DNA of 32,000 nucleotides, taken from the NCBI RefSeq assembly GCF_000179635.2, contig NC_014824.1, positions 300,001-332,000 on the forward strand, in the 5' to 3' direction. Source of the stretch: Ruminococcus albus 7 = DSM 20455. GTDB taxonomy: Bacteria; Bacillota; Clostridia; Oscillospirales; Ruminococcaceae. Made by a program: the position numbers and the translations under genes. Below are positions 3,976 to 29,841 of the stretch, one piece after another. Numbering within the stretch: position 1 is the stretch's first letter; every line of letters starts with the position of its first letter. The notes below the pieces were generated by a model that did no database searches, was not told where the DNA came from, and worked only from the letters and a program-made list of their open reading frames with translations.

Positions 3976-4281
3976 TGGAGTGAATAATCCCGATCTGTGG
4001 CAGTACTTTTAGGACGACTTCTGAATAGTTATGTATAATTAAGCGCACTAAACTTCGATTTAGTGCGATAATACCGTGTGAAATTTAATGATGAAAAGCA
4101 ATTGCTGGAAAGCGATTCTCCTGTTCAAAACTGAAAACTTATGTAATTGCGGTTCTCATAGGAGGAAATTTTTTGTTTCGTTAGGGAAGTGCCACGAAAA
4201 TCAAAACGATAACAAAAAAAATCGGTCAATCAATAATTCATAAGAGAAAAAACGCTTTTATACTATTAGAAAATTTTTCTC

Positions 4282-4310
4282 TTGCATTATAACTTCATAT
4301 ATGTTATAAT
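4282..4310 (+). promoter_or_regulatory. sigma-70-type promoter upstream of scaffold RNA A1
   Basis: TTGCAT, 17 nt spacer, TATAAT. Confidence 0.5.
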
Positions 4311-4368
4311 GACTATAGAAAATCAATTTCATTGATCAGTAATACAGGGCGAATGATAAGCTCACGTT

Positions 4369-4507
4369 AAAATGCTGGGAGATTCGCACTTTATTTCGGG
4401 CGGCTCGGCGTCCGTAAATCGAGAAGTGCTCGTAAGTCTACAAATCTGTAGCCGAAGTAACTCTCGATAAGGTAAAAGCAATACACATTCAATCCGTGTA
4501 TTCAATT
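4369..4507 (+). ncRNA. structured scaffold RNA, copy A1 (tracrRNA/omega-RNA-like), directly upstream of CRISPR array 1
   Basis: Positions 4379-4526 differ from 13585-13732 by one nucleotide. Helices: GGGCG/CGTCC (4398-4413), ATCGAGA/TCTCGAT (4418-4424 with 4462-4468), CTACA/TGTAG (4438-4451), ATACAC/GTGTAT (4481-4501). The same architecture recurs with compensatory changes at 15853-15975. Confidence 0.6.
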
Positions 4508-4526
4508 TTATTTGTATAATTATGCA

Positions 4527-4824
4527 GATGCAATCTGTACAGGCAGGTAAATTGCGAGCAGCCATATCCTTTATCAGCCGTCCGCCGCATTCGGGGATGC
4601 AATCTGTACAGGCAGGTAAATTGCGAGGTGTAAAAGCCGTCAACATAAAAACCACTACTAGATGCAATCTGTACAGGCAGGTAAATTGCGAGAACAGACG
4701 TACAGTTTCAAGGGCGATTGAGATAGATGCAATCTGTACAGGCAGGTAAATTGCGAGAAGTCATTTGCAACAGAGATTTTATTAAAGTGGAGGATGCAAT
4801 CTGTACAGGCAAGTAAATTACAAA
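4527..4824 (+). CRISPR. mini-CRISPR array 1: 4 identical 32 nt repeats plus 1 degenerate terminal repeat, 4 spacers (37, 33, 33, 35 nt)
   Basis: Repeat GATGCAATCTGTACAGGCAGGTAAATTGCGAG at 4527, 4596, 4661 and 4726. Degenerate copy at 4793-4824. TTTGTATAAT promoter-like element at 4511-4520 immediately upstream. Confidence 0.9.
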
Positions 4825-5151: not shown

Positions 5152-6264
5152 ATGAACAAATTCGGAAAGATCGTATCCTCGCTGACAGCACTGATGATAT
5201 TGGGGAGTACATTCACAGTAAATGCAGGCGCTGAAACTTTTTATACAAAAGGGGATATAAACAACAGCGGCACAGTAAATATTACGGATATCATTAAGAT
5301 AGCTTCTCATATAAAAAGCAAAAAAATGCTTAGTGAAGAGCGAAATGATATACTTGTACCGTATACAACACTCTGGGCTGCCGATGTCAACAGGGATGGA
5401 AAACTCAATATAACTGACATCACTACAATAGCGGCTCAAATAAAGAACGTAAAAAGTATTAGTAGCAGCACTAATGCATTTAAAAATGTAAGAAAACTAA
5501 CGACTCCTACCGAAACTGATATTATCGCTAGAGCACTCAGACTTACCGAAGCTAATCTCAAATACTACTCACCTAATGAGCCCAGAAAATATGATTTCAC
5601 AAAAGGAAACGACAAAGCTGAAAAAATCATCCTTAAAGAAGGAATAGACTGTTCGGGTATAATAAATTATGCTCTGGGTACACTTGGAATAGAAACAGAA
5701 GGTCTTCGTGGATCAAGCAACACTAATGCTGCACAATTTGGATATACTCCGGCAGCAACAGGTGACTGGCTCAATAAATATAACGTAATAAAGCCTGTAA
5801 AGAATGCTTATTGGATCGTTGACGGAACAAAGAAACCGATGAAAGTGCTGAAAAACGGTGTTTCTACCTCAAAACAGAAGTATTATCAGTACGGGAAGAA
5901 TAATGATATAATTCCTGTGGGTTCTATTGTCGTTGCCTTTGCTGAAGATAATAAAGGAAACCGCATGGCTAATGCAGATCATATGTGGCTGTATCTGGGC
6001 GAATACAACAATGCAAATGAAGTTAGAAAATACATAGCTTCACTGACAGATAAGGCTCCTGGGGATATTATGACCAGGATAGGCTCACAGAAGATAGGAT
6101 ATAATAGCAACAACAGCGATAATGACGGAAAACACTGGAGACTTGAAAGCACGGGTACTTGGCACGGTTTTGATAACTTCACCGGACCGCAGATAAATAA
6201 TGACCTTTGTAATAACACAAAAACACAGTATCTGATCTATGTTTTTGCCCCGCCCACTTTTTGA
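5152..6264 (+). CDS. secreted dockerin-containing NlpC/P60-family peptidase
   Basis: Signal peptide. Two dockerin repeats (GDINNSGTVNITDIIKIASHIK, ADVNRDGKLNITDITTIAAQIK). NlpC/P60-type GIDCSGIINYALG Cys motif and ADHMWLYLG His motif. Confidence 0.8.
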   Translation: MNKFGKIVSSLTALMILGSTFTVNAGAETFYTKGDINNSGTVNITDIIKIASHIKSKKMLSEERNDILVPYTTLWAADVNRDGKLNITDITTIAAQIKNVKSISSSTNAFKNVRKLTTPTETDIIARALRLTEANLKYYSPNEPRKYDFTKGNDKAEKIILKEGIDCSGIINYALGTLGIETEGLRGSSNTNAAQFGYTPAATGDWLNKYNVIKPVKNAYWIVDGTKKPMKVLKNGVSTSKQKYYQYGKNNDIIPVGSIVVAFAEDNKGNRMANADHMWLYLGEYNNANEVRKYIASLTDKAPGDIMTRIGSQKIGYNSNNSDNDGKHWRLESTGTWHGFDNFTGPQINNDLCNNTKTQYLIYVFAPPTF

Positions 6265-6276
6265 TAGCGTATAATT

Positions 6277-6294
6277 TGTGTCACGCGTGATACA
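6277..6294. repeat. palindrome family copy P1 (TGTGTCACGCGTGATACA)
   Basis: One mismatch to TGTGTCACGCGTGACACA. Lies 13 nt after the stop codon of 5152-6264. Confidence 0.8.
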
Positions 6295-6439: not shown

Positions 6440-7461
6440 CATGGTTATCCCTTTAACACACCACAGATAATTTACAATGCTGTCCAAATAAACAGACCTC
6501 AAAACTCAGAAAATATAGTATAATAGTGACAGAAACCGAAGGGAGCTGTCGCTATGTCAAAAAGATTTCCGAAACCTGAGATCACACTTGATGGGATATA
6601 CTCAAAGTTCGCAGATGAAAGCTTTTGCAAGGATTTTCTGCTTGATATCCGCTTTGAAAAGGGTTTTGCCTGCCCGTTTTGCGGTGGCTCTGAGTACCGC
6701 AGGATAAGGTCACGCCATCTGCTGCGATGCAAGTTCTGTAAAGCAGATATATCCGCCACAAACGGAACTTTTATGCACAGAACACATATTCCGCTCAGAC
6801 TGTGGATAGTCACCGCATTCCTCATTATGAGCAACAAATGCAGCGTTTCTGCTGTTACGCTGATGAGGTCTTTGGGGGTGACCTACAAGACTGCATGGTA
6901 CATCCTTCATCGCATCAGAAAAGCTATGAAATGCCGTGAAGAACGCTATTTGCTTGACGGGATCGTTGAACTTGATGACACGTATCTCGGTGCTCCGACT
7001 CACGGTAAAAAGCGTGGCAGAGGAACTGAAAAAGTCAAGATGATAGTAGCTTTGTCAAAGAACGCAGCAGGAAATCCCGAGTACGTTAAAATGAGCGATG
7101 TGCCGAATTTAAAGGGTATAACTGTTGGTAGATTTGCCAGGGATAATATCCGCGCAGGCTCGAAGATCGAGAGTGATAATGCTCGAAGTTACAAGAAACC
7201 GTTGGCACAGAAATACTTCCATGTTTTTGAAACATATGATCCGACAAGCGGTCAGCTGAACTGGATGCATAAAGTTATATCAAACTTCAAAGCAATGATC
7301 ATGGGAACTTACCACGGAAACGAAAAGATCCACACAGCGTTATATGCTGCCGAATACTGCTACAAATTCAACCGTCGTAAGCTGGGAAACAGTGCGTATT
7401 TAAGGCTTTTGGCTGCTTTGGTGCAGTGATCTTACTTGTGGTGTGTTAAAGGGATAACCAT
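6440..7461 (+). mobile_element. IS1595-family insertion sequence with target-site duplication
   Basis: 24 bp terminal inverted repeats ATGGTTATCCCTTTAACACACCAC (6441-6464; reverse complement at 7438-7461). Flanked by direct repeat AATATTCAT (6431-6439 and 7462-7470). Confidence 0.85.
6554..7429 (+). CDS. IS1595-family (ISXO2-like) DDE transposase
   Basis: N-terminal zinc-ribbon CPFCGG...CKFC, then IPLRLWIVTAFLIMSNK and VELDDTYLG, as in IS1595 transposases. Confidence 0.8.
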   Translation: MSKRFPKPEITLDGIYSKFADESFCKDFLLDIRFEKGFACPFCGGSEYRRIRSRHLLRCKFCKADISATNGTFMHRTHIPLRLWIVTAFLIMSNKCSVSAVTLMRSLGVTYKTAWYILHRIRKAMKCREERYLLDGIVELDDTYLGAPTHGKKRGRGTEKVKMIVALSKNAAGNPEYVKMSDVPNLKGITVGRFARDNIRAGSKIESDNARSYKKPLAQKYFHVFETYDPTSGQLNWMHKVISNFKAMIMGTYHGNEKIHTALYAAEYCYKFNRRKLGNSAYLRLLAALVQ

Positions 7462-7469
7462 AATATTCA

Positions 7470-7500
7470 TTGATAGCTTGGAGGTCAGACAAGTTGTTGA
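7470..7500 (+). promoter_or_regulatory. conserved 5' leader hairpin (instance 4)
   Basis: ttgatagctTGGAGGTCAGACaagttgttga. Its promoter (TATAAT 6414-6419) is displaced about 1 kb by the IS1595 insertion. Confidence 0.6.
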
Positions 7501-9285: not shown

Positions 9286-9303
9286 ATAAGACCTGTCTTT
9301 TAC

Positions 9304-9331
9304 AAACGTCTCTCTTCGTAGGGGCGTTTTT
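9304..9331 (+). terminator. intrinsic terminator, conserved family
   Basis: AAACGTCTCTCttcgtaGGGGCGTTTTT. Confidence 0.75.
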
Positions 9332-9602
9332 ATGCTGTGTCCATAAACTGTCATTTCATCTGGATGTTAAAGTATAACGATATTGAGATTATTAATTATA
9401 TAAATTGCATAATTTTAACAATTATAACTTTATGAACTACATAATTTGCAAAAAATTATCAGATACACACTAACTTGGAAATTTCGGTAAATTTCGAGTT
9501 AAGGTGAGGTAAAACGTATTTTTGATAGGTTGACTTTCTTTCTCGAATGTGTTAAATTAAAATTGTCGCGACAAACACTATTAATTAAGGAGTAATTTAA
9601 CC

Positions 9603-11552
9603 GTGAATATAAACATAAAGTCAAAAAGAATAATTGCAGGTGTAATGGCACTTTCAATCGTATCTTCTGGTGCAATTGCATCTGAGTCAAGCGTGATAGG
9701 CAGATTAATTTTATTAAATTCGCTCTCTGCAAGTGCCGGTACTGTTTATGGTGACTGGGAATATGAAGTAACCGGAGACCACACTGCAAAGCTAGTAAAG
9801 TATACCGGCAGCGATGCAGAAATTAGTATCCCTCAGGGCATTGACGGTCATTCGATAACAGAACTTGGTGAAAATCTGTTCAGTAATAATACTAATATCA
9901 AGTCTGTAAAGATCCCCAGAGGTATCCAGAGCATACCCGGTTACTGTTTCTCAAATGCTTCAAATCTGGAATCGGTGGTAATGCCTCTCGGCGTAACAAA
10001 AATCGAGCGCGGGGCTTTTATGAATGCAAAGAGCCTCACATCAATAGCGCTGCCTCTTTCTGTTGATACCATTGAAAGCTCTGCATTTACCGGCTCGGGA
10101 ATAACTTCCATTAACATGCGGGATGTTAATGAGTTCGGCAAAAGAATTTTTACAGACTGTAAAAACCTTAAAGATGTGGTGCTTCCCGATGGCATTACAA
10201 TAATTCCCGAAAGTACATTTGAAAACTGCATCGGCATAGAGTCCATCATCCTTCCTGATGACCTGATCACTATTGAAAAGAACGCTTTCAAAGGCTGCAC
10301 AAACCTTACAGAGATAAACGCACCCGATTCGTTGACGACTATAAAAAATTCTGCTTTCATGAATTGCTCAAAGCTTAAAAAAACTCCTTGTTCAGAATCA
10401 ACGGTTTCAATTGAATTCGCTGCATTTAGAAACTGCACAGGCCTTGAATCTGTATCATTCTCAAACTCACCTACTTCGATAGGATCGTATGCTTTTGCAG
10501 GCTGCGAAAAGCTTGAATATATCTCCATTCCCGACTCAGTAGAGAAGATTGATTCAGATGCTTTCAGCGAATGTAAAGGTATCAGGTCGATAGATCTTGA
10601 TGTTAATTCAGCTACTAAATTCGGCGGATACTGTTTCAAAGGCTGTTCTTCAGTAGAAAATATAAATGTTTCCGATTTTGACATTCTGGCAGGATTGTTC
10701 GACAAAAGAACATTTTCAGGCTGCAAAGAGCTACGTACAATAAACAATGAAAGTCCCGTTATTCTTAACGGCGATAACACTGAGCCTGAGTTTACAGAAA
10801 AGTACAGAAGTGTTATAATAGAGAATTTTGATGCCATTGACGACAGTGAGCTGGGTTTCTTCAATGACTACCTTGAAGCAGAAGTAAAGTACGTTGTATC
10901 CACAAATATAACCGATGATATGTCCGATATGGAGAAGATAAAAACTCTTCATGATTGGCTCTGTAACAAGGTATTCTATAAATATATCAAGAAAAACAGC
11001 AAGTATACTCCTGATACCAGCAATTATACTCAGGTGGATTCGTCTGCATTTATCAGAAATTCAACTGTATGCGCAGGCTATGCCAAAGCACTTACACTTT
11101 TGCTCAATGAATCTGGTGTAGAAGCATATCTTCTTGTAAATTTCAGCGAACATGCATGGTGTATGGTTAGAGTTGGAGACCATTATTTTCATCTTGATGC
11201 AACACATGATGATTCAGGCTCTGATCCAAACGGTACCATAGGTTATGATCACTTCCTTATCTCGGATACCGATGTAAAAAAATGCTCTTCAGGTCATTCG
11301 AGCTGGGCGATCGATGCGCCTACAAGCCGATATAAATACACTATTCCCGACGAAATCCCCAAATGCCTCTATTCGGTAGGAGATGTAAATAAGGATGGTG
11401 TCATCAACGATGATGATGCCGACCTTATCTGGTATTACTGCAACGGCGATATCGGCTCCATAGACCTTGTTCTCGCAGATACAAACTTCGACGGCAAAGT
11501 TGACTGGGATGATTACCTGGCAGCGCTCAAACGCAAATTGCCCCGAGGATAA
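9603..11552 (+). CDS. secreted leucine-rich-repeat (BspA-type) protein with transglutaminase-like cysteine peptidase core and C-terminal dockerin
   Basis: GTG start after tAAGGAGtaatttaacc; signal peptide. Repeated ...I.IP..V..I...AF..C..L... units. VCAGYAKALTLLL...HAWCMVRVGDHYFHLDATHDD (Cys-His-Asp). Dockerin GDVNKDGVINDDDADL / ADTNFDGKVDWDDY. Confidence 0.8.
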   Translation: MNINIKSKRIIAGVMALSIVSSGAIASESSVIGRLILLNSLSASAGTVYGDWEYEVTGDHTAKLVKYTGSDAEISIPQGIDGHSITELGENLFSNNTNIKSVKIPRGIQSIPGYCFSNASNLESVVMPLGVTKIERGAFMNAKSLTSIALPLSVDTIESSAFTGSGITSINMRDVNEFGKRIFTDCKNLKDVVLPDGITIIPESTFENCIGIESIILPDDLITIEKNAFKGCTNLTEINAPDSLTTIKNSAFMNCSKLKKTPCSESTVSIEFAAFRNCTGLESVSFSNSPTSIGSYAFAGCEKLEYISIPDSVEKIDSDAFSECKGIRSIDLDVNSATKFGGYCFKGCSSVENINVSDFDILAGLFDKRTFSGCKELRTINNESPVILNGDNTEPEFTEKYRSVIIENFDAIDDSELGFFNDYLEAEVKYVVSTNITDDMSDMEKIKTLHDWLCNKVFYKYIKKNSKYTPDTSNYTQVDSSAFIRNSTVCAGYAKALTLLLNESGVEAYLLVNFSEHAWCMVRVGDHYFHLDATHDDSGSDPNGTIGYDHFLISDTDVKKCSSGHSSWAIDAPTSRYKYTIPDEIPKCLYSVGDVNKDGVINDDDADLIWYYCNGDIGSIDLVLADTNFDGKVDWDDYLAALKRKLPRG

Positions 11553-11662: not shown

Positions 11663-11680
11663 TGTATCACGCGTGACACT
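11663..11680. repeat. palindrome family copy P2 (TGTATCACGCGTGACACT)
   Basis: Two mismatches to the consensus; directly after a terminator T-run. Confidence 0.7.
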
Positions 11681-11828: not shown

Positions 11829-12350
11829 ATGGGTTCAGTAATTGAATTAAACGAATGCCCTAAATGTAGTTTTGAGGAAATGAGCTGCGAATATTGGTAC
11901 AGAAGCGATGAGTACAGTGAGTTGTGTCCAAAATGCGGATATTTCAGAAAGAAATTCCTGAAAAGAGATGATAACAGGGAGCCTATAATGCTAACTGAAG
12001 ATATCAGGCGTGAAGATGTAGTCGTTCTTAAGAATAACAAATGGGTATCTCCGGAAAAAGATGAAGATCTTTCAGACTATCCTACAAGTAATTTTGCCGT
12101 AATAATGTCAGATGAAATAATGCGTTACCCTTCTTTTGCAAGAATGGATAAAGATGGAACTAAAGTGACGTATCCAGATTATATAACTGAAACCGGTGGA
12201 GGATGCGGAGCTGTTCATGTAAAATACTCCAACAATCTTGAACGGATAATATCGCTCGGGGAAAAAGGAGACTCTGAACGGATCAAAAAAGCAGTATATG
12301 AAGAGGATACAACAAAAGATATAGTATCTATAGAGATCACTTGCCCTTGA
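11829..12350 (+). CDS. hypothetical zinc-ribbon protein (173 aa)
   Basis: RBS aacGGAGGaataaagacATG; N-terminal CPKC...CPKCG. Confidence 0.7.
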   Translation: MGSVIELNECPKCSFEEMSCEYWYRSDEYSELCPKCGYFRKKFLKRDDNREPIMLTEDIRREDVVVLKNNKWVSPEKDEDLSDYPTSNFAVIMSDEIMRYPSFARMDKDGTKVTYPDYITETGGGCGAVHVKYSNNLERIISLGEKGDSERIKKAVYEEDTTKDIVSIEITCP

Positions 12351-12367
12351 TTATAGCAATACAAAAC

Positions 12368-12391
12368 GTCTTTCTTCGGAAAGGCTTTTTT
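12368..12391 (+). terminator. intrinsic terminator, conserved family
   Basis: GTCTTTCttcgGAAAGGC followed by TTTTTT. Confidence 0.6.
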
Positions 12392-12476
12392 GTTGTATGG
12401 AAAATCTGTAAGATACGACAAGCGTAATTTTATTTACGCCGTAAAAACGGTAGCTGAACTTTACAAATCACTTGAT

Positions 12477-12881
12477 ATGATGCAGTCTATAGGAATAATG
12501 GTAGAGGGGGCCAAAGAAGGTGTTGGTGCCTGCATTTGGAAATCTATAACCAGTTCTACCAATATAGCTCTTTTACTTATGAATCACAGTATAGGGGATG
12601 ATTTGGCTAATGAGGTGTTTCTGGATTTTGTCGAACGGTACATTAAAAATAATATGATAGACAAGGATATTTCGGCTTTTTACGCAACATACAAAAATTT
12701 CGGCAATAATGCTGCGATGGTCAAGCATGAATTGGAAAGACTTAATTCACGTTATGACTATTATTGTGATGATTGTCCTACCAGAAGAAATGGTGAAGAA
12801 TGTGATATTGATTGCCAAAGCAAGAAAGAAAGTCTTTTAAAACGAATTAAGCAGCTGCGTAGAGTGGAAAGCAATCTATAA
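12477..12881 (+). CDS. hypothetical protein; start uncertain
   Basis: The ORF is open from 12390, but that stretch overlaps the terminator. The first in-frame ATG is at 12477 and has no clear RBS. Confidence 0.4.
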   Translation: MMQSIGIMVEGAKEGVGACIWKSITSSTNIALLLMNHSIGDDLANEVFLDFVERYIKNNMIDKDISAFYATYKNFGNNAAMVKHELERLNSRYDYYCDDCPTRRNGEECDIDCQSKKESLLKRIKQLRRVESNL

Positions 12882-12900
12882 AAGACAGGGGAAATTAATT

Positions 12901-13416
12901 ATGAGTTACCATGTTTGGTCTGTAGACGGATACGGTTTTGATGTTTCAAATACAATAAATAATCTTACACTTGAAAAATGGTCACTGTTAAAAGAGAATA
13001 TTCGGCTTTTCTGGGAAGAAAAAAAGCCTTACAGTGATGAAGATTATCCCGAAGCGAAAAATTTTTTTAATATTCCTGTTGATGTGAATGATATTAAGCA
13101 GGATATTCAAAACGCCAGAGAGCTGTTCAGTGAATACGAAAGTCCATTTTATTGTTTATATGGGTTTGATGATCTTGTCGCTGAAATTTTTGTATGGCTA
13201 TGGCAAAAGAATGGGCATATTGAAGATTTAGTGGAAATAGTTATTGATGAGTTTACTGATAGTCATACATACTGGCTTTTAGGTATGGTGTATCCATGGC
13301 GTAAAGTTGAAAAATTCGATTCTAAAGAAGACTGCCGAAATGCGATTATTAAATCAATGAAAGGATTTGTAGAGGCAGGGAATGTAAATTTTGAATCCAT
13401 TGAACAGGGAGGATGA
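12901..13416 (+). CDS. hypothetical protein (171 aa)
   Basis: ORF track; purine-rich stretch gacAGGGGaaattaattATG. Confidence 0.65.
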   Translation: MSYHVWSVDGYGFDVSNTINNLTLEKWSLLKENIRLFWEEKKPYSDEDYPEAKNFFNIPVDVNDIKQDIQNARELFSEYESPFYCLYGFDDLVAEIFVWLWQKNGHIEDLVEIVIDEFTDSHTYWLLGMVYPWRKVEKFDSKEDCRNAIIKSMKGFVEAGNVNFESIEQGG

Positions 13417-13477: not shown

Positions 13478-13506
13478 TTCCTTTTTACTATTAGAAAATA
13501 TTTCAC

Positions 13507-13535
13507 TTGAATTATAGATGTATTTGTGTTATTAT
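13507..13535 (+). promoter_or_regulatory. sigma-70-type promoter upstream of scaffold RNA A2
   Basis: TTGAAT, 17 nt spacer, TATTAT. Confidence 0.45.
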
Positions 13536-13574
13536 AAATACAGGAAAACTCGTTGCGAATGGCAAGCTTACATA

Positions 13575-13713
13575 AAAATGCCAAGAGATTCGCACTTTAT
13601 TTCGGGCGGCTCGGCGTCCGTAAATCGAGAAGTGCTCGTAAGTCTACAAATCTGTAGCCGAAGTAACTCTCGATAAGGTAAAAACAATACACATTCAATC
13701 CGTGTATTCAATT
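13575..13713 (+). ncRNA. structured scaffold RNA, copy A2, directly upstream of CRISPR array 2
   Basis: Positions 13585-13732 equal 4379-4526 except A13684 versus G4478. Confidence 0.6.
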
Positions 13714-13732
13714 TTATTTGTATAATTATGCA

Positions 13733-13900
13733 GATGCAATCTGCACTACGCAAGTGAATTGCGAGTTCGGCGTTGCTGCTTGATGAATCGGGCACTATCG
13801 ATGCAATCTGCACTACGCAAGTGAATTGCGAGGTATATTAATTTGTACAAAAGCAGTCGAACACTTTGTTGCAATCTGTACTACGCAAGTGAATTGCGAG
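13733..13900 (+). CRISPR. mini-CRISPR array 2: 3 repeats of 33 nt, 2 spacers (34 and 35 nt)
   Basis: Repeat GATGCAATCTGCACTACGCAAGTGAATTGCGAG at 13733 and 13800. Variant with 2 substitutions at 13868. Confidence 0.8.
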
Positions 13901-13966: not shown

Positions 13967-13991
13967 GACAGCTTAACGCCCTAAAATCGAG
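13967..13991 (+). repeat. isolated copy of the scaffold 5' hairpin module (copy E)
   Basis: GACAGCTTAACGCCCTAAAATCGAG, compare GGGCGACTTAACGTCCTAAAATCGAG at 17469. Preceded by AAAATGATCACAAAATAATCT, which also occurs at 17568-17589. Confidence 0.45.
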
Positions 13992-14124
13992 AAAATATTT
14001 TGCAAATTTATCAACGAGATACTACTTCATTCGTATATGATTTCAAGTGTTTTGAATGTAACGATGGCGGTAAGTGTGAAATCTGTCGTATCAAGCGGTA
14101 AAATGAATATTAAAGGAGTGCGCT

Positions 14125-15414: not shown

Positions 15415-15452
15415 AACAGCAAGCAAGAAAAATAACCGATAATTTGTCTTTT

Positions 15453-15482
15453 AAACGTTCCTCACACGAGGGGCGTTTTTTT
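15453..15482 (+). terminator. intrinsic terminator, conserved family
   Basis: AAACGTTCCTCacacGAGGGGCGTTTTTTT. Confidence 0.75.
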
Positions 15483-15591
15483 CATCATACAAGAATAGAA
15501 GATGTTGACTACAATTTGTTTTTTTGATATAATAATCAAGGAAATATTAAAAAGGAAAAATTATCTTCTGTTATAATAGTATAAAACTTGT

Positions 15592-15609
15592 TGTGTCACG
15601 CGGGACACA
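15592..15609. repeat. palindrome family copy P3 (TGTGTCACGCGGGACACA)
   Basis: One mismatch to the consensus. Confidence 0.75.
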
Positions 15610-15697
15610 AATAAAATGTTCCCTATAAAAACCTTTTTTGCAGGGACGTTTTCATCGATAAAGATTTTCTTCTATAATTATCTTAGATCTAAAAATT

Positions 15698-15728: not shown

Positions 15729-15852
15729 TTTACAGTAAAGGAGAAAATTGAAATGCACTATTAATCATCAAAAGAAATCCCGAACTATATAAAATTTTTC
15801 TCAAAAAGAATAACAGCAACAATAAATAACACTGTGATATTCATATTATCCA

Positions 15853-15975
15853 GGGCGGCTTAACGCCCTTAAATCGAAACAATGCGTCGTAAACCGCTAT
15901 ACAGCGTTGATCGTATACTCGATAAGGTAATATCTCAGCAATGAGATCAAAATTATACGCATAAAATCCGCGTAG
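15853..15975 (+). ncRNA. structured scaffold RNA, copy C, upstream of the Cas12f/TnpB-like gene
   Basis: Same helix order as A1/A2 with compensatory changes: GGGCG/CGCCC (15853-15868), ATCGA/TCGAT (15873-77 with 15919-23), CGCT/AGCG (15895-15906), TACGC/GCGTA (15956-15974) with conserved loop A-AATCC. It has one extra hairpin, ATCTCA/TGAGAT (15932-15947). Confidence 0.55.
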
Positions 15976-16072
15976 ACAGTGAACATAACTATATAAGAAT
16001 GTGAGCTGTAAGTTATATAATGATATTGGAGTATTGATGTGTCCTTCAAAAAAATCTTAAGGAGTAATAAAA

Positions 16073-17434
16073 ATGACTAAAGTAGTAAAATTAGCGTTAA
16101 TAAGCAATGTAACCGATAAAGATGGAAACAAAGTTGAATACAATGAATTAAACAGATGCCTATGGGATCTTCAAAAAGAAACCAGGGACCTGAAAAATGC
16201 TGTAGTAAGAGAATGCTGGGAATGGTACGGATTCACCAACGATTATTATAAACTTAACGAAGAATATCCGAATGAAAGAGATTATCTGAAAAAGGCAAAG
16301 TCTGACGGAACGATTAAAGATTATGCTTTGGATGGATTTATATATGCTAAATACAGCAAAAAATACAATCTTCATTCAGGAAACTATTCACAAACATTAA
16401 GAGACGCCTGCGGAAGCTTTAAAAATAATCTCAAAGAAATATTAAGAGGAGATAAGAGCATTTTAAGTTATAGAGCCGATCAGCCTCTGGATATCAAGAA
16501 GACCTGTATCGGACTGGAATACGATAAGGACACAAACACTTATTATGTAACTCTTGTTCTGCTAAACAAAAATGGCGTCAAGCATTATAATATCAGTGAT
16601 TTCAGATTTAAGATAACCGTAAAGGATAATTCAACAAGAACGATCCTTGAACGTTGTTTTGATGGAGTATACGGCATAAGCGCAAGTAAGCTTATCTGGA
16701 ACAGAAAGAAGAGTCAGTGGTTTTTAAATCTCTGCTATTCATTCGATAAAGTAGAGGTAAAGGAACTTGACAAGAAAAAGATACTGGGAGTAAATCTCGG
16801 TGTTTACTACCCTTTATACGCTTCAATATCCGGAGAAAAGGATAGACTAGCGATCTCTGGTGATGAAATAATCGAATTCAGGAAACGAATAGAGGCTAGA
16901 AGGACAGCTCTGAAGAAACAGGCTGCTGTGTGCGGAGATGGAAGGATAGGTCATGGTTATAAAACCAGGATGAAACCATTACAGAATGTCTCTGATAAGA
17001 TAGCAAATTTCAGAGATACCTTTAATCACAAAGCAAGTAAAAAGCTAATTGATTTTGCAATCAAAAATGATTGTGGGATCATCCAGCTCGAAAATCTTAA
17101 AGGAGTAACAAAAAATTCAGAAGGATTCCTCAAAAACTGGTCTTTTTATGATCTTCAGAGTAAGATCGAAAATAAGGCGAAAGAAAGAGGGATAAAAGTT
17201 GTTTATATTGAACCTGCTTACACAAGCCTGAGATGCTCAAAATGCGGATGTATACACAAAGATAATCATCCGACCAGAGAGCAGTTTATCTGTCAAGAGT
17301 GTGGGTATAGGGTTCTGCATGATTACAATGCCAGCCAGAACATTGCTGTCAAGGATATAGACAAGATAATAAAAGCTGAACTTGAAAAGACGGAACCGGA
17401 AAAGAAAACAGAGGAAGAAAAGCCCGAGAAGTAA
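16073..17434 (+). CDS. miniature Cas12f/TnpB-like RuvC protein (453 aa) with Asn at the RuvC-I catalytic position
   Basis: RBS tAAGGAGtaataaaaATG. RuvC-I context KKILGVNLGVYYP (N241, AAT 16793-16795, where the family has GxDxG). RuvC-II IIQLENLKG (E340). Zinc finger CSKCG...CQECG. RuvC-III HDYNASQNIA (D417). GDGRIGHGYKTRMKPL resembles the Gly/Arg/Lys-rich linker I recall from Cas12f. Confidence 0.8.
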   Translation: MTKVVKLALISNVTDKDGNKVEYNELNRCLWDLQKETRDLKNAVVRECWEWYGFTNDYYKLNEEYPNERDYLKKAKSDGTIKDYALDGFIYAKYSKKYNLHSGNYSQTLRDACGSFKNNLKEILRGDKSILSYRADQPLDIKKTCIGLEYDKDTNTYYVTLVLLNKNGVKHYNISDFRFKITVKDNSTRTILERCFDGVYGISASKLIWNRKKSQWFLNLCYSFDKVEVKELDKKKILGVNLGVYYPLYASISGEKDRLAISGDEIIEFRKRIEARRTALKKQAAVCGDGRIGHGYKTRMKPLQNVSDKIANFRDTFNHKASKKLIDFAIKNDCGIIQLENLKGVTKNSEGFLKNWSFYDLQSKIENKAKERGIKVVYIEPAYTSLRCSKCGCIHKDNHPTREQFICQECGYRVLHDYNASQNIAVKDIDKIIKAELEKTEPEKKTEEEKPEK

Positions 17435-17468: not shown

Positions 17469-17589
17469 GGGCGACTTAACGTCCTAAAATCGAGGCGATT
17501 AATCCTGATTGCTGACTAAAGGCTGGCAGGCAATAAAGCTGCGTTATCCGTTGTATGCAGAAGAATAAAAACGATCACAAAATTAATCT
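17469..17589 (+). ncRNA. partial or diverged scaffold copy D plus repeat-like remnant, 3' of the effector gene
   Basis: GGGCGacttaaCGTCCTAAAATCGAGG starts 35 nt after the stop codon, preceded by TGATGATAAT (-10-like). Contains GGCAGGCAATAAAGCTGCG, which resembles repeat 1 (GGCAGGTAAATTGCGAG). Ends with AAAACGATCACAAAATTAATCT, shared with the trailer of array 2. Confidence 0.4.
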
Positions 17590-17597
17590 GAGAAAAA

Positions 17598-17626
17598 GGC
17601 TTTGTTTTAGTGACAGAGCCTTTTTT
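17598..17626 (+). terminator. intrinsic terminator
   Basis: GGCTTTGttttagtgaCAGAGCC followed by TTTTTT. Confidence 0.7.
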
Positions 17627-17641
17627 GGCAGCTGTATGTTT

Positions 17642-17659
17642 TGTGTCACGCGTGACACA
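17642..17659. repeat. palindrome family copy P4 (perfect TGTGTCACGCGTGACACA)
   Basis: Perfect 18 bp palindrome, 20 bp with the flanking T/A. Lies 33 nt upstream of TATAAT 17692-17697. Confidence 0.85.
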
Positions 17660-19315: not shown

Positions 19316-19333
19316 TGTGTCACACGTGACACA
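19316..19333. repeat. palindrome family copy P5 (TGTGTCACACGTGACACA)
   Basis: One central substitution; directly after the terminator. Confidence 0.8.
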
Positions 19334-20996: not shown

Positions 20997-21018
20997 GTCA
21001 ATATCCATATTAGTTAAG

Positions 21019-21049
21019 AAACGTCTCTCCTCGGAGGGGCGTTTCTTTT
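21019..21049 (+). terminator. intrinsic terminator, conserved family
   Basis: AAACGTCTCTCctcgGAGGGGCGTTTCTTTT. Confidence 0.75.
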
Positions 21050-21129
21050 ATACTATGGAATATGCATTGGCAGGAAAAAAACGATTATATAATCTGTTGT
21101 TTTCTGCTATAATCAATAAAGAAACATCA

Positions 21130-21160
21130 TTGATAGCCTGGAGGTCAGACGGGTTGTTTA
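21130..21160 (+). promoter_or_regulatory. conserved 5' leader hairpin (instance 10)
   Basis: ttgatagccTGGAGGTCAGACgggttgttta, 16 nt after TATAAT (21108-21113). Stem ATAGCC/GGTTGT differs compensatorily from ATAGCTT/AAGTTGT at 7470. Confidence 0.6.
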
Positions 21161-21831: not shown

Positions 21832-23157
21832 TTATGCTGTTTGAGCGATAAATTCCGCATTCAGGTTAACTAAGGTAGAGAACGTGCAGGTGCTTCTCTT
21901 ACTGCATTGAGGTACTTTAGCCTCAATGAGCAACCTTGAATTCTCATCCAAGGATTTTAATATTTCACGTATGAAGTATCTTGCCCCTATATTATACGAA
22001 GCAGATAGATCGCAGTTGTAGGTCTTGCCATTTTGAAATTTGCATAGCTCATAGGTATTGAAACCACCGAATTTACCACGAAGTACAAAACCACTGCCAT
22101 CGTATGCAAGGCGTGACGTATTCCATGCACAGATATGGCTTACTCTCATACCTAGTCTGTGAGCTTTATTCGTTACAATAGACTGAACTTCCTGACTGCG
22201 CCACAGCTTGAGCTTCTGCTTTTTAGAACCGCGGACCTTACCGTTCTTGTCTAAATGCTCAAATACAATAACATCTGCATTATAAAGAACGGCTATATCT
22301 ACGATGCAGGCAGCAGTTTTAGTGGCAATGTCGTGATTGATTCCTTTGGCTTTTGCCCAAAGCCTTGGTGTTTTATAGTTACCATGCTGCTGAGCTTTTT
22401 TTATACGGTTAATGCTATGCATCAGATGGTCTGTTTCTTTGGTAAGCTTACAAAAATGCCTTCCAAGAATAGTGCCATCTGAACGCATTACGGAAACCGT
22501 AGCTGCGGTGTTGATCCCAAGGTCTACAGCAACAATGGTCTGCTCATACACAGATATATCTGCCAGTTTGACCTTTTCCTCAAACGGAAAGTCCAAAAAC
22601 CACTTCTTGCCTCGTTTTTGAAGTGTTGGAGCGCATTCCTTGCGAAACCTGCAATATCTGTATATATAATCCATATCAGACTTTTTAAGGTTTATAGTTA
22701 TCCAGTCCCATGTATTACGGATATAGACTTTGATCTGGGCAGTATAATCACCGGTCTGATTGTACATTACTGTACGATACATAGACGGGAATGAATAACC
22801 TGCTTTTGGATACGATGGTTCTCTGCCTACAGAATCTTTGATCCAGTTATCGAAATTGCTTTTGTAAGATGATACCTTGCCTATAGCCTCGTTAATAGCA
22901 CCACGGCGCAGATAGCTTGGCATCTTATAGAATTTGGCATCAAAATCATAAATTGGATCGGGATTATCTTTTGTAGCATGGATCAGTGTTTCAATATATG
23001 TGAGTCTACTCACCCCTTTGAATGTAACAATGTTATCCCAATGATCCAGACAAACGCTGATAAGGTAATCTACAGCATGTCTGTATTCGATAACGGTATC
23101 TTTGAAAATGTTGTTGTAATGCTTGATCTTAACGCTGTATGTCGTATATATCTGCAT
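21832..23157 (-). CDS. tnpB: TnpB-like RNA-guided endonuclease (441 aa), RuvC triad intact
   Basis: RBS AAGGAGGG upstream. RuvC-I IVAVDLGINTAA, RuvC-II VIVFEHLD, RuvC-III YNCDLSASYNIGARY. AWNTSRLAYDGSG replaces the usual CxxC zinc finger. Confidence 0.8.
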   Translation of the reverse strand: MQIYTTYSVKIKHYNNIFKDTVIEYRHAVDYLISVCLDHWDNIVTFKGVSRLTYIETLIHATKDNPDPIYDFDAKFYKMPSYLRRGAINEAIGKVSSYKSNFDNWIKDSVGREPSYPKAGYSFPSMYRTVMYNQTGDYTAQIKVYIRNTWDWITINLKKSDMDYIYRYCRFRKECAPTLQKRGKKWFLDFPFEEKVKLADISVYEQTIVAVDLGINTAATVSVMRSDGTILGRHFCKLTKETDHLMHSINRIKKAQQHGNYKTPRLWAKAKGINHDIATKTAACIVDIAVLYNADVIVFEHLDKNGKVRGSKKQKLKLWRSQEVQSIVTNKAHRLGMRVSHICAWNTSRLAYDGSGFVLRGKFGGFNTYELCKFQNGKTYNCDLSASYNIGARYFIREILKSLDENSRLLIEAKVPQCSKRSTCTFSTLVNLNAEFIAQTA

Positions 23158-23332: not shown

Positions 23333-23350
23333 TGTGTCACGCGTGACACA
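23333..23350. repeat. palindrome family copy P6 (perfect; part of a ~33 bp extended palindrome) inside the TnpB element
   Basis: TTCTGTgTTTGTGTCACGCGTGACACAAACAGAA. Confidence 0.85.
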
Positions 23351-24354: not shown

Positions 24355-24363
24355 ACTGCTGTG

Positions 24364-24392
24364 AAAACATCTCTCTTAGGAGGGATGTTTTT
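24364..24392 (+). terminator. intrinsic terminator, conserved family
   Basis: AAAACATCTCTCttagGAGGGATGTTTTT. Confidence 0.75.
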
Positions 24393-24518
24393 CATTTTAG
24401 TATAAAAATTAATTTGATTGTTAATAATATTTGTCCAATCAAAAGACTTGACGATGTATTTTATAAATGCTATAATATAAAGTAACACAAATTAATTATT
24501 TAGAAGAGGGATGGTATT

Positions 24519-25592: not shown

Positions 25593-25600
25593 TTAATACC

Positions 25601-25627
25601 AACGTCTCTCTACGGAGAGGCGTTTTT
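25601..25627 (+). terminator. intrinsic terminator, conserved family
   Basis: AACGTCTCTCtacgGAGAGGCGTTTTT. Confidence 0.75.
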
Positions 25628-25707
25628 ATGTGTGTTACAATAGTTCAAATAAATCTTTTGCTTTTATCTTCATCAATTTTATCATACAATAAATTTGTAG
25701 ATGATTA

Positions 25708-26167: not shown

Positions 26168-26915
26168 TGTAACCGAAAACCCCCGGCTATGCCGGGGGTT
26201 CTAAAAAGCTTTAGCTATGAGTAGAAAAATAAAACCTCCTGTGATAAACTAAGAATAGGTCTGGCAACCGAAACTTAGAATAACAAGGAGGTATCGTCAA
26301 TGACAAGAGACGATATAAATAGTTTAGCACATTCCAAGTGGAATTGCAAGTACCATGTAGTATTTGCCCCGAAATATCGAAGAATGGTGATTTATAATAA
26401 AATCAAAGTGGATATCGGAAAGATACTAAGAAAGTTGTGTGATCAAAAAGGAGTTAAAATAATCGAAGCAGAGGCGTGTCCTGATCATATACATATGCTG
26501 TTGTCTATTCCACCCAAATACAGTGTAGCAGAGATAATGGGATATTTGAAAGGCAAGAGTAGTTTGATGATATTTGACAGACACGCAAATCTGAAATATA
26601 AGTATGGCAACAGGCACTTCTGGTGCAGAGGATACTATGTTGATACAGTAGGAAAGAACAAGAAAAAGATAGCAGAGTACATCAGGAATCAGTTGCAGGA
26701 AGATATAGTGTGCGACCAGATCAGCCTGTTTGAGACAGTAGACCCATTTACAGGAGAAAAATACAAGAAAAAGTAGAAAACGAACACAAAATACCCCTTG
26801 AGGGGTTGCACGGGAATGAAATGCGGTTGACAGACCTTTCCCGACCCCTTAAGGGGTAGTGTCAGTATCATGCCCTTATAGGGCTAGTGCAAACCACCCG
26901 TTTAACGGGTGGTTT
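26168..26915 (+). mobile_element. IS200-type element (tnpA only); boundaries approximate
   Basis: Left hairpin AACCCCCGGCtatGCCGGGGGTT (about 26180-26202). Several right-end hairpins: CCCCTTgaGGGG, CCCCTTAAGGGG, GCCCTtatAGGGC, ACCACCCGtttaaCGGGTGGT (about 26795-26915). Confidence 0.75.
26300..26776 (+). CDS. tnpA: IS200/IS605-family Y1 (HUH) transposase TnpA
   Basis: HUH motif PDHIHMLL; catalytic Tyr context RGYYVDTVG; size 158 aa. Confidence 0.9.
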   Translation: MTRDDINSLAHSKWNCKYHVVFAPKYRRMVIYNKIKVDIGKILRKLCDQKGVKIIEAEACPDHIHMLLSIPPKYSVAEIMGYLKGKSSLMIFDRHANLKYKYGNRHFWCRGYYVDTVGKNKKKIAEYIRNQLQEDIVCDQISLFETVDPFTGEKYKKK

Positions 26916-26933
26916 TGATTCACGCGTGATAAA
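26916..26933. repeat. palindrome family copy P7 (degenerate, TGATTCACGCGTGATAAA)
   Basis: Core TCACGCGTGA is intact; the outer positions have diverged symmetrically. Confidence 0.55.
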
Positions 26934-27717: not shown

Positions 27718-27900
27718 TAATACACCTTCTTTTTTCTATAATATAATTATACTAGATTTTTTTCTAATGGGAAAAAATTTTTTCTTGCTGTCGTTTTTAT
27801 TACTCTAAATTTTCTGCTATTATATGATTGCATTTGTAATAATAAAAAATAAGGGAATGCATAATCTGATAATACACAGGAAAACGAAAGGATGATTTTT

Positions 27901-29841
27901 ATGAGCAAAAAGTATAATAGGGTTCTGGCAGGAATTATATCATTAACGTTAATGTTTTCAATGACAATAACCGTATCAGCTGTTGAAAACGAAATGGATT
28001 CAAATTCGTATGATTCAAGCAATACGAGTGTAAGTTACCCTGAAGCCTCAACAAATAAGATAGCAGTAAATGATATTTATCTCATGGACAGTGAAGATAT
28101 GAGTTTCGGAACCGTATATAATCCGGCTATATTAAGAAGTAATTCACCAAAATACTGTGGTTTGAAAGTCAAGCTGACCAAGCAAGGCGATATTACTTTA
28201 AGCATGACTGCAACTTCAAACAAAGTGTCACTTCTTTTTGTGGATTCAAACGGCAGCATAAAGGAAAAGTATGATTATACGGGAAGAACAAATGAAGTCG
28301 GTCAGATAAAACTGGCAAAAGTGCCGGCGGGAAACTATTATGTTGTTATATATAATAAAGGTGTAACATCAGATACAGTTGTTTCTGATCTGTTCATAAA
28401 ATCCTCTGTTATCTTCGATATCACTGACACCGGTAAACTCAAGGCCACGACTGACTACTCAAAAAATGAGGCTGTTCCGGCATATAAATTCAAGTACAAC
28501 GGTGTGGAACTTAAGGAAAATGTTGACTATAAGGTGCTCAGAACTTCCAGCAGCAACAAAAAGATCTCCGGAGGTATAGAATATTCTTTTACTGTTGAGA
28601 TACAGGGCTTAGGAAACTATGTTGGTAAAACCTCCAGGACGTTCATAAACTCTGTAGATGATGAAAACAATAAGATCAATTTTATTGAATGTGAAGTAAG
28701 CGAACCGACGTATAAAGGCGAAAACCCTGTATTTGTTGTTAAACACAAAGGTAAAATCCTTACTGAAAACAAAGATTATAAGATCGTAATAAATACATCA
28801 GATGTTACTAAGTCCGGAGTTACTTACAGAACCTATAACTGCACATTTATAGGTATGGGAAATTATGCAGGAAGCTTCTCCTATAAAATAGAGAATCACA
28901 AAATTTCCGACACGACAAAGAAAAACATTTCCTCCTGCAGTATCACTCCGGTTTTCTCAAAAGGCGAATTCGTGAAGCTTATCGTTATGGATAACGATAA
29001 AACACTAGCTCAAAACACAGATTACACTTACACAGTCACTAAAACCGGGGAAACTGAAAAAAATGGGATCACTACTATTAGCTATGAAATAGTAGTGTAT
29101 GGCATCGGCTCATACATAGGTTCCTGTACGGCAAACGGAACTACACAGAAAAACGGCAAGATCGTTTTAAATTTCAGTGATTACAGCGTTGGAGACAAAG
29201 AGTATACCGGCAGACAGATAACTCCGAATCCCACATTGGTAATAACCGATAGAAACGGAAAGGAGATCACTCTGAAAAAGGATGAAGATTATACTATAAC
29301 CTATGGTTCTAACACTGCAGTAGGTTTTCTTGCAGGTAATTTTACAATTAAAGGAATAGGAAACTATACAGGAACTTCGTATATCCGGTTCAATATTGTC
29401 CCCGCAAAAATCAATGATATTAAAGGCTCACCTATCAGCGTCGGTTATACCGGAAAAGCTGCAACTCCGTTCAATGATAAAATTCGCCTTTCTGATGGAA
29501 GAGCTGTACTTTATGGTATAGATTATACTGTAGAGTATTCTAACAACGTTAAGATCGGAACAGCTACGGCAGTGATCAAGTTCAAGGGTAACTACCAGGG
29601 TACTGTAACAAAAAAATTCAGCATCGTAGAAGGAACAACGCTGTCAAAGGGAGATGTTAACGGAGATGGAAAAATCAACATAACTGATATAACTCTTGCA
29701 GCAGCTCATATAAAAGGCAGAAAGATCATTGACTCAAAAGATGACTTGCTCAGAGTTGACGTAAACGAAGACGGAAAAGTGAATATTACCGATATTGTAG
29801 TGATAGCAGCTCATATAAAAGGGAAAAAAACTCTGAAATAG
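27901..29841 (+). CDS. secreted cell-surface protein with tandem Ig-like repeats and C-terminal dockerin
   Basis: ATG at 27901, 8 nt after GAAAGGA; signal peptide. Repeated ...DY.V.......G......I.G.GNY.G....F.I units. Dockerin GDVNGDGKINITDITLAAAHIKG / VDVNEDGKVNITDIVVIAAHIKG. Confidence 0.8.
   Translation: MSKKYNRVLAGIISLTLMFSMTITVSAVENEMDSNSYDSSNTSVSYPEASTNKIAVNDIYLMDSEDMSFGTVYNPAILRSNSPKYCGLKVKLTKQGDITLSMTATSNKVSLLFVDSNGSIKEKYDYTGRTNEVGQIKLAKVPAGNYYVVIYNKGVTSDTVVSDLFIKSSVIFDITDTGKLKATTDYSKNEAVPAYKFKYNGVELKENVDYKVLRTSSSNKKISGGIEYSFTVEIQGLGNYVGKTSRTFINSVDDENNKINFIECEVSEPTYKGENPVFVVKHKGKILTENKDYKIVINTSDVTKSGVTYRTYNCTFIGMGNYAGSFSYKIENHKISDTTKKNISSCSITPVFSKGEFVKLIVMDNDKTLAQNTDYTYTVTKTGETEKNGITTISYEIVVYGIGSYIGSCTANGTTQKNGKIVLNFSDYSVGDKEYTGRQITPNPTLVITDRNGKEITLKKDEDYTITYGSNTAVGFLAGNFTIKGIGNYTGTSYIRFNIVPAKINDIKGSPISVGYTGKAATPFNDKIRLSDGRAVLYGIDYTVEYSNNVKIGTATAVIKFKGNYQGTVTKKFSIVEGTTLSKGDVNGDGKINITDITLAAAHIKGRKIIDSKDDLLRVDVNEDGKVNITDIVVIAAHIKGKKTLK

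Follow-up and report, generated by a model that had tools for sequence, protein, structure and literature searches.

An AsCas12f1-like protein with asparagine in place of the first RuvC aspartate, and its clade on plasmid-like elements of Ruminococcus albus and relatives

The window analysed here is a 32,000-nucleotide stretch of Ruminococcus albus 7 = DSM 20455 (contig NC_014824.1, positions 300,001 to 332,000 of the forward strand), and all coordinates below count from its first letter. It contains cas12f1, a gene for a 453-amino-acid (aa) relative of the small CRISPR nuclease AsCas12f1, in which asparagine (Asn) stands at the position of the catalytic RuvC-I aspartate (Asp). A scaffold resembling a trans-activating CRISPR RNA (tracrRNA) lies directly upstream, and two further tracrRNA genes, each followed by a short repeat array, are found elsewhere in the window. 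The protein belongs to a clade in which the Asn has been kept by selection, and we consider it a probable RNA-guided DNA binder that has lost efficient cleavage.

The cas12f1 gene and its product

The product is 100% identical to ADU24010.1/WP_013483559.1 of R. albus 7 (ATCC 27210), which is encoded on a 420,706-bp record and bears the generic RefSeq name 'RNA-guided endonuclease TnpB family protein'. A first-pass annotation, made from the letters of the window, had read RuvC-II, zinc-finger and RuvC-III motifs in this open reading frame (ORF) and an Asn at residue 241; all of the motifs are present, and the AAT codon was read directly. The features of the gene are as follows.

16073-17434, + strand: cas12f1 gene, Asn variant, 453 aa (ORF; PDB and NCBIfam matches)
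16793-16795, + strand: codon 241, AAT, Asn at the RuvC-I catalytic Asp position, D225 of AsCas12f1 (alignment)
17090-17092, + strand: codon 340, GAA, the RuvC-II Glu (motif IIQLENLKG), E324 of AsCas12f1, retained (phmmer)
17234-17302, + strand: zinc finger C388/C391...C407/C410 (C-x2-C...C-x2-C), enclosing H399 and R402
17267-17269, + strand: codon 399, His in place of the essential Arg, R383 of AsCas12f1, inside the zinc finger
17315-17323, + strand: L415-H416-D417, with the RuvC-III Asp (D401 of AsCas12f1) kept, motif LHDYNASQNIA (alignment)

When the protein was compared with PDB sequences by phmmer, AsCas12f1 of Acidibacillus sulfuroxidans was the best match (E ~1e-95, residues 21-435), with ~50% identity over 415 residues. 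The strand ILGVNLGV was aligned, as 'kilgvNlgv', with 'kimgiDlgv' in the wild-type chain 8j12 and with 'kimgiAlgv' in chain 7wju, the D225A mutant, and the same alignment paired E340 with E324, H399 with R383 and D417 with D401. N241 therefore falls on D225, as had been proposed from the motif, and the predicted fold concurs: an AlphaFold2 model built from 63 homologues (predicted local distance difference test score 84.6) gave AsCas12f1 chains as its top PDB structure matches in Foldseek (E 2e-43 to 1.4e-40; template modelling score, TM-score, 0.64-0.73). The generic NCBIfam subfamily guided_TnpB scored 225 bits against a cut-off of 100, and Pfam Cas12f1-like_TNB scored 70.9 bits. Homology in both sequence and predicted fold spans the WED/REC, RuvC and zinc-finger domains, and on this basis we identify the protein as an AsCas12f1-like Cas12f1 of type V-F1. 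Assignment to the transposon-borne TnpB proteins was rejected; the IS200_TnpB and IS607_TnpB profiles gave 54 bits (cut-off 425) and 33 bits (cut-off 350), there is no insertion sequence (IS) context, and tracrRNA and repeat elements flank the gene.

An asparagine clade and its RuvC pocket

Residues at the active-site columns were counted over 121 sequences, comprising the query and its 120 closest protein clusters (P-numbers denote such clusters, and L-numbers the related loci, of which 76 were fetched). The RuvC-I column held Asp in 105 sequences, Asn in 16 and no third residue, while the RuvC-II Glu was present in 121/121 and the RuvC-III Asp in 120/121. A neighbour-joining tree grouped 12 clusters, P0001-P0011 and P0015, into a monophyletic clade whose members are 56-100% identical to the query; Asn was found in all 12, which answers the question, raised in the first-pass annotation, of whether orthologues conserve it. 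Variants differing at 2 to 69 residues were found in other isolates of R. albus and in several metagenome samples of independent origin, and all of these variants had N241, H399, H416 and D417.

In the eight clade genes for which DNA was available, the Asn codon was AAT six times and AAC twice. The ratio of non-synonymous to synonymous substitution (dN/dS) against an 84%-identical orthologue was 0.076, and in the remaining pairs of clade genes synonymous sites were saturated, with a proportion of non-synonymous differences (pN) of 0.13-0.30. The use of two codons, the low dN/dS and the low pN at synonymous saturation indicate that Asn has been kept under purifying selection over a long time. 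This is incompatible with the suggestion that the gene had suffered a very recent single-nucleotide knockout. A sequencing error or a strain-specific, pseudogene-like allele, also contemplated at first, is excluded by the presence of Asn in several R. albus isolates and throughout the clade. We conclude that these proteins form a distinct, long-lived AsCas12f1-like clade on megaplasmids and plasmid-like elements of R. albus and its relatives.

The change at residue 241 does not stand by itself. In AsCas12f1, D225A, E324A, R383A and D401A each abolish cleavage (10.1101/2023.07.03.547593). Two of these four essential residues are replaced in the window protein (D225 by N241, R383 by H399), so that it lacks an intact D-E-D triad with the active-site Arg, while E340, D417 and the zinc finger are invariant. 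Comparison of the clade with the 105 Asp-type relatives revealed 15 positions fixed to a different residue, five of which lie in or next to the RuvC pocket: D241N, R399H, Q402R, N415L and A416H. Every clade member has N241, H399, R402, L415 and H416 where the Asp-type relatives have D (100%), R (99%), Q (98%), N (99%) and A (99%), respectively; R402 thus replaces Gln within the zinc finger, and a clade-specific Leu-His replaces Asn-Ala just before the RuvC-III D417. No new acidic residue occurs among the clade-specific substitutions near the pocket. The changes at residues 399, 402, 415 and 416 had not been noticed in the first-pass annotation.

Mean pairwise identity within the clade was 0.75 for RuvC and zinc finger as compared with 0.62 for REC/WED, and nuclease-type relatives are likewise more conserved in the former. 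Because the RuvC and zinc-finger region is the more conserved part of the clade proteins, the alignment points to a RuvC domain that has been remodelled and held by selection, not one that is drifting or decaying.

Substitution of the same Asp by Asn was also found outside the clade, in P0026, P0043 (311 cluster members), P0101 (102 members) and the viral contig L069, giving at least four independent origins beyond it. These lineages altered the Asp only, keeping the Arg and either Asn-Ala or Cys-Ser. When 150 family representatives were taken (50% clustering), 117 were D-E-R-D and ~20 had another residue at RuvC-I, mostly together with the Glu and the last Asp. Loci L034-L037, L040, L041, L048 and L053, from metagenome-assembled genomes mostly of rabbit-gut Clostridia, encode proteins with 36-47% identity, triads F-E-F, T-E-H or H-E-N and no active-site Arg; judged by these residues they are further, unrelated inactivated branches of the same Cas12f1 family.

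The Asn-type gene may be present in more than one copy per genome. In the draft of R. albus 8 it appears on three contigs (L019, L039, L043), all broken at residue 294/295, and one of these, of 635 bp, spans residues 84-294 only; the breakpoints suggest that two or more paralogous copies were collapsed in assembly. Another R. albus strain carries two Asn-type copies on a single 419-kb contig.

Guide RNA cassettes and the surrounding element

Three tracrRNA-bearing modules lie in the window, one (tracrU) directly upstream of cas12f1 and two (cassettes A and B) at a distance from it.

15505-15678, + strand: putative control region of the tracrU-cas12f unit (consensus matches)
15505-15533 and 15649-15678, + strand: promoter-like sites in the control region (consensus matches)
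15592-15609, + strand: palindrome TGTGTCACGCGGGACACA in the control region (consensus matches)
15838-15985, + strand: tracrU, tracrRNA-like scaffold directly upstream of cas12f1 (covarying stems)
15999-16012, + strand: half repeat ATGTGAGCTGTAAG, 14 nucleotides (nt) (alignment to relatives)
17469-17500, + strand: truncated tracrRNA remnant downstream of the gene, consisting of the first stem and AAATCGAG only (sequence comparison)
17594-17627, + strand: terminator-like hairpin and T-run closing the unit (read by eye; not in the terminator scan listing)
4257-4526, + strand: cassette A, with promoter-like region 4257-4322 and tracrA 4349-4526 (core 4383-4526)
4527-4824, + strand: mini-array A, five repeats (GATGCAATCTGTACAGGCAGGTAAATTGCGAG, the last degenerate) and four spacers
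13482-13732, + strand: cassette B, with promoter-like region 13482-13547 and tracrB 13555-13732
13733-13900, + strand: mini-array B, three repeats (GATGCAATCTGCACTACGCAAGTGAATTGCGAG) and two spacers, with a possible third spacer after the last repeat
13968-13996, + strand: degenerate tracrRNA-like fragment after array B

The scaffold tracrU shares 79-81% identity with the tracrRNAs at the closest orthologous locus (P0002, L017). In relatives tracrU is followed by a single GTAAG-type repeat, and the half repeat is the 3' part of it that an internal deletion of ~23 nt has left in the window. Clade loci with enough flanking sequence carry two to four cassettes each, on the strand of the gene; a cassette is a tracrRNA directly followed by a mini-array of 2-6 repeats of 32-33 nt with locus-specific spacers, and 37 distinct spacers were counted. 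Most of these loci hold several intact GTAAG-type cassettes with diverse spacers, whereas Asp-type relatives have a single tracrRNA and a single array with up to ~20 repeats. Two tracrRNA stems showed compensatory changes in 5/12 pairs (RNAalifold, 17 tracrRNAs), and a scan of the window at Rfam gathering thresholds returned no family. The association of tracrRNA and array that characterizes type V-F1 is thus present, the module adjacent to the window gene having a half repeat only.

The cores of tracrA and tracrB are identical at 143/144 positions despite promoters that are only 77% identical and first repeats that agree at 28/32, and such near-identity between diverged flanks suggests that both cores are in use. 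Both tracrRNAs are 80% identical to the tracrRNA of a chromosomal Asp-type Cas12f1 (P0069) of R. albus AD2013 and 62-64% identical to tracrU, and their repeats end in GCGAG, not in the GTAAG of the protein's own lineage. These identities place the remote arrays A and B in the tracrRNA/repeat lineage typical of Asp-type Cas12f1. The first-pass picture of a gene surrounded by structured RNAs and two remote mini-arrays is therefore right as to their presence, but the arrays are of the Asp-type lineage and the gene-adjacent module has lost its array. A dedicated search detected no Asp-type cas12f gene or remnant in the window, and no Asp-type Cas12f1 with more than ~50% identity to the query was present on any R. 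albus 7 record among the clusters listed; the Asn-type protein therefore seems the most likely to use cassettes A and B. Duplex energies calculated for tracrRNA 3' ends paired with repeats did not discriminate between tracrRNA types in this AT-rich sequence.

The two system types may also adjoin. On L005, a 196-kb metagenome contig, the Asn-type cas12f1 P0011 and its cassette are directly followed by an Asp-type paralogue, P0123, at 11912-12907, which encodes 331 aa with D-E-R-D intact and without the first ~122 residues; P0123 comes with a tracrRNA of its own and a repeat that differs (ending GATTGAAAG), and thus both types co-occur on one element. In the window itself, a second, distant TnpB-like ORF of 441 aa lies on the - strand at 21832-23157. 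It is 21% identical to Cas12f1, has an apparent D-E-D (VAVDLGI, VFEHLD, NCDLSASYNI) and no zinc-finger cysteines, and scores 67 bits with guided_TnpB, below the cut-off. For its low identity, its lack of the cysteines and its different lineage it was rejected as a partner of arrays A and B.

Comparison of the spacers with all 76 fetched loci gave a sole meaningful match, in L011, where a spacer matches 30/34 bases in two paralogous genes of L011 itself; this hints that spacers derive from related elements. Two L007 spacers from different mini-arrays (9752-9784 and 12178-12203) overlap on CAATGGTTT[T/C]CCCCATT. The reverse complement of this shared target, ATGGGG(A/G)AAACCATTG, contains an ATG with a plausible leader and is possibly a gene start, an anecdotal case. 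The putative fixed guide that follows the half repeat in the window (TTATATAATGATATTGGAGT) had no second site there at up to 3 mismatches, so that an autoregulatory or local target is unsupported.

Pfam scans of the 41 window ORFs detected no Cas1, Cas2 or Cas4, confirming the absence of adaptation genes reported at first pass. Other Pfam content comprises dockerin proteins, IS1595 and IS200 transposases, a SUKH immunity protein, DUF4241, DUF4314 and a DNA methylase fragment. Orthologous loci carry ParA/ParB, topoisomerase, MuF, a VirB4-like ATPase, PcfJ, zeta and HipA toxins, RNase H and methylases, and no adaptation genes among their called genes. There was no clade member in IMG/VR, in which the closest match was 43% identical, and the first 25 kb of the window had no megablast match in phage and plasmid collections. 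The elements that carry the clade look like megaplasmids or conjugative elements rather than phages.

The neighbouring genes include three dockerin type I proteins (5152-6264, 9603-11552 and 27892-29841), one of which also has BspA-type leucine-rich-repeat and transglutaminase domains; they fit cellulosome-related cargo of a megaplasmid in R. albus. Positions 6554-7429 encode an IS1595 transposase, and 26300-26776, 9 kb from cas12f1, an IS200-type Y1 transposase, the only Y1 transposase in the window. An 18-bp palindrome, TGTGTCACGCGTGACACA, occurs six times with at most 2 mismatches (0 expected by chance), in each case between genes: 6277-6294, 11663-11680, 15592-15609, 17642-17659, 19316-19333 and 23333-23350, with a weaker copy at 26913-26932. 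Three palindromes are followed by a conserved promoter-like block ending in TATAAT (15644, 17663, 29925), and the repeat looks like the operator of a regulator shared by many cargo genes, the tracrU-cas12f unit included. Similar terminator-like hairpins (AAACGTCTCTC...GAGGGGCGTTTTT), at 9301-9334, 12361-12394, 15450-15483, 21016-21049, 24362-24395 and 25597-25630, end successive single-gene units; together with the palindrome and promoter blocks they give the region a cassette-like organization. A 35-nt element, TTCATTGATA..CTGGAGGTCAGACAAGTTGTTGA, recurs at 1772-1806, 7466-7500 and 21126-21160 with 80-89% identity, at or near ORF starts.

Possible function and comparison with known systems

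RNase H-fold nucleases are inactivated, in the systems tested, when Asn replaces their first carboxylate. Because the window protein has Asn at this position and has in addition lost the essential Arg, canonical two-metal DNA cleavage has very probably been lost or greatly slowed. The first-pass annotation had offered a naturally nuclease-dead, RNA-guided binder as the alternative to a recent knockout, and the double loss of the D225 and R383 equivalents makes that description plausible. The explanation that we favour, and regard as probable, is that the protein is a selected, cleavage-deficient, RNA-guided DNA binder that the megaplasmid uses for non-destructive interference or regulation.

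Such a protein would still assemble with tracrRNA and CRISPR RNA (crRNA) and would form R-loops on double-stranded DNA that depend on a protospacer adjacent motif (PAM), while two-metal cleavage would be gone or very slow. It would act by occupancy, blocking transcription or replication of the target in the manner of Cas12m, and Glu and Asp, both retained, may together with the new histidines grip a single metal ion and the displaced strand and so tighten binding. The Cas12m precedent would give a reason both for the retention of Glu and Asp and for the exclusive, recurrent choice of Asn. Guides would be supplied by the dispersed cassettes, in each of which a mini-array follows a tracrRNA gene, and new spacers would have to be acquired in trans, because the elements are without cas1, cas2 and cas4. 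A fuller version of this scheme, to which we give somewhat less than even credence, is that of a natural, selected type V-F system working by CRISPR interference (CRISPRi). In a full-length Cas12f1, the RuvC pocket (N241, H399, H416, E340, D417) would have been turned from a two-metal nuclease site into a single-metal clamp on the displaced strand or a site of new chemistry, and its dispersed cassettes, transcribed independently and exchangeable also with Asp-type systems, would let the megaplasmid silence rival elements or host genes without DNA breaks.

Several observations weigh against a binding-only role. That cleavage is lost is extrapolated from the mutants of an enzyme with 50% identity and from what is generally known of nucleases with the RNase H fold. 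The invariance of E340 and D417 and the gain and fixation of two histidines fit a changed catalytic mechanism equally well. The own-lineage module, tracrU, keeps only a half repeat, and the intact cassettes A and B look Asp-type. Finally, no protospacer was found for the 37 concatenated spacers in phage and plasmid collections, for four 22-24-nt spacer cores in IMG/VR or for two spacer cores in JGI metagenomes, and therefore no PAM or target class is deduced; a role in plasmid conflict is suggested by the single 30/34 spacer match in L011.

The best surviving alternative, which we nevertheless consider unlikely, is that the remodelled pocket (N241, E340, H399, H416 and D417) is catalytic by another chemistry, acting as a slow or nicking DNase, with another metal preference or in RNA processing, so that the clade would be a nuclease of altered specificity; it would then recall Cas9 and bacterial RuvC, whose active sites include a His close to the last Asp. 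E340 and D417 are indeed invariant, five pocket positions have changed together and are 100% fixed, and conservation of the RuvC domain is unrelaxed; however, the clade-specific substitutions near the pocket add no acidic residue, and AsCas12f1 activity is abolished by D225A and by R383A (10.1101/2023.07.03.547593). A survey of TnpB and Cas12 proteins records many lineages with replaced catalytic residues that are probably active via rearranged sites (PMC10691335), but the independent D-to-N lineages changed the Asp alone, which resembles simple inactivation that is tolerated or selected, and Cas12m variants with non-canonical triads cut no DNA.

It is quite improbable that the protein is a mimic directed against the Asp-type Cas12f1 of the host or of rival elements, soaking up tracrRNA:crRNA or forming inactive heterodimers, and thus an anti-CRISPR or modulator rather than an autonomous effector. 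Cas12f works as an asymmetric homodimer (10.1101/2023.07.03.547593), and the chromosomes of other R. albus strains encode Asp-type Cas12f1 (P0069) with a tracrRNA close to tracrA and tracrB, but Asn- and Asp-type proteins are only ~52% identical, which makes heterodimers speculative, and among the matches listed no Asp-type Cas12f1 above ~50% identity lies on the R. albus 7 records. The decay of the protein's own array in the window and the pairing of an Asn-type gene with a truncated Asp-type paralogue in L005 would also suit a decoy, which would, however, have no need of the several intact GTAAG-type cassettes at most clade loci. A decaying or non-functional relic, in which Asn is a tolerated lesion in an unused gene or an assembly or sequencing error, would account for the reduced cognate array, the truncated downstream tracrRNA and the lack of spacer targets, but is scarcely credible given a reading frame that is intact in every copy seen, the low dN/dS, synonymous saturation across the clade while the Asn and both histidines stay fixed, the same protein in a finished isolate genome and identical or near-identical ones in independent metagenome samples, and tracrA and tracrB cores that have stayed alike between diverged flanks.

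If the protein does bind without cutting, it would be a naturally optimized relative of AsCas12f1, 453 aa long and cleavage-deficient; AsCas12f1 itself is a nuclease of 422 aa that has already been engineered for genome editing. To our knowledge, engineered nuclease-dead Cas12f (dCas12f) variants carry only alanine substitutions; binding tuned by evolution would offer a useful start for compact scaffolds for CRISPRi, CRISPR activation (CRISPRa) and base editing. It would also extend a pattern, known from Cas12m, Cas12k, type IV systems and the nuclease-dead TnpB-like repressors (TldR), in which mobile elements repeatedly turn RNA-guided nucleases into binders. The pattern would now reach type V-F, on megaplasmids of the cultured rumen bacterium R. 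albus 7, where it is directly testable. The recurrence of Asn with strict retention of Glu and Asp raises the question of what role the remaining RuvC site plays after catalysis is lost, and the clade that poses it is cleanly defined, is present in a bacterium that can be cultured and has a workhorse of genome editing as a close relative.

The closest known proteins are AsCas12f1 and its relatives from gut Clostridia, such as OsCas12f1. The window protein resembles them in domain order, zinc finger and predicted fold, and its system resembles theirs in the homologous tracrRNA scaffold, the 32-33-nt repeats and the lack of adaptation genes beside the effector. It differs from AsCas12f1 in the replacement of D225 by N and R383 by H and in the residues that precede the RuvC-III Asp, and the clade differs from these relatives in residing on plasmid-like elements with several dispersed tracrRNA and mini-array cassettes. 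A 2023 survey mentions 'large branches' of Cas12f with altered catalytic sites, which it leaves undescribed (PMC10691335), and full-text literature searches returned no account of this clade or of Cas12f from R. albus.

Naturally nuclease-deficient proteins derived from Cas12f or TnpB are known in dCas12f-sigmaE, the putative dCas12f of Bacteroidota and TldR, all thought to act on transcription by RNA-guided binding. Those described from Bacteroidota are C-terminally truncated and tied to sigma factors or efflux promoters (Hoffmann et al., PMC13472631). Whereas dCas12f-sigmaE and TldR have lost RuvC motifs by such truncation, the window protein is full length with RuvC-II and RuvC-III intact; whereas the Bacteroidota systems are chromosomal, the clade is found on mobile elements of Bacillota. 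A PDB dCas12f chain matched the window protein at only E 1e-16 (phmmer), and no sigma-factor, helix-turn-helix or flagellin association was seen in the window or at seven orthologous loci, which sets the protein apart from the dCas12f-sigmaE and TldR groups. It is likewise distinct from the Cas12k transposons, as no Tn7-like tnsB, tnsC or tniQ domains were found in the 41 window ORFs or among the called genes of the orthologous loci.

The plasmid-borne type IV-A3 systems resemble the clade in their location on large plasmids, their lack of cas1 and cas2 and their short arrays. According to one report, they serve in inter-plasmid conflict, acquire spacers in trans and are thought to interfere without target cleavage (10.1101/2023.06.23.546257). 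Type IV systems, however, belong to class 1, are built of several subunits, include DinG and have no sequence relationship to the clade.

The first-pass annotation had named Cas12k and the TnpB-like repressors as precedents; nuclease-dead derivatives are an apt comparison, but Cas12m (type V-M), with its HDD, NDD and NED triads, is a closer one. Like the window protein, Cas12m is CRISPR-associated and combines a non-canonical first RuvC residue with retention of the other acidic residues. Cas12m proteins whose triads are HDD, NDD or D-E-D bind DNA, leave it uncut and block transcription or replication, an HDD site holds one Mg2+ and the non-target strand and thereby strengthens binding, and NED-type clades are on record (PMC10442227, PMC11013384). 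The likeness is functional only, since Cas12m is a different Cas12 family (~10% identity and a TM-score of ~0.4 for Cas12m2 structures in Foldseek) and uses no tracrRNA, unlike the window system. Binding without cleavage, demonstrated for Cas12m, is by this analogy most probably also the way in which the window protein works.

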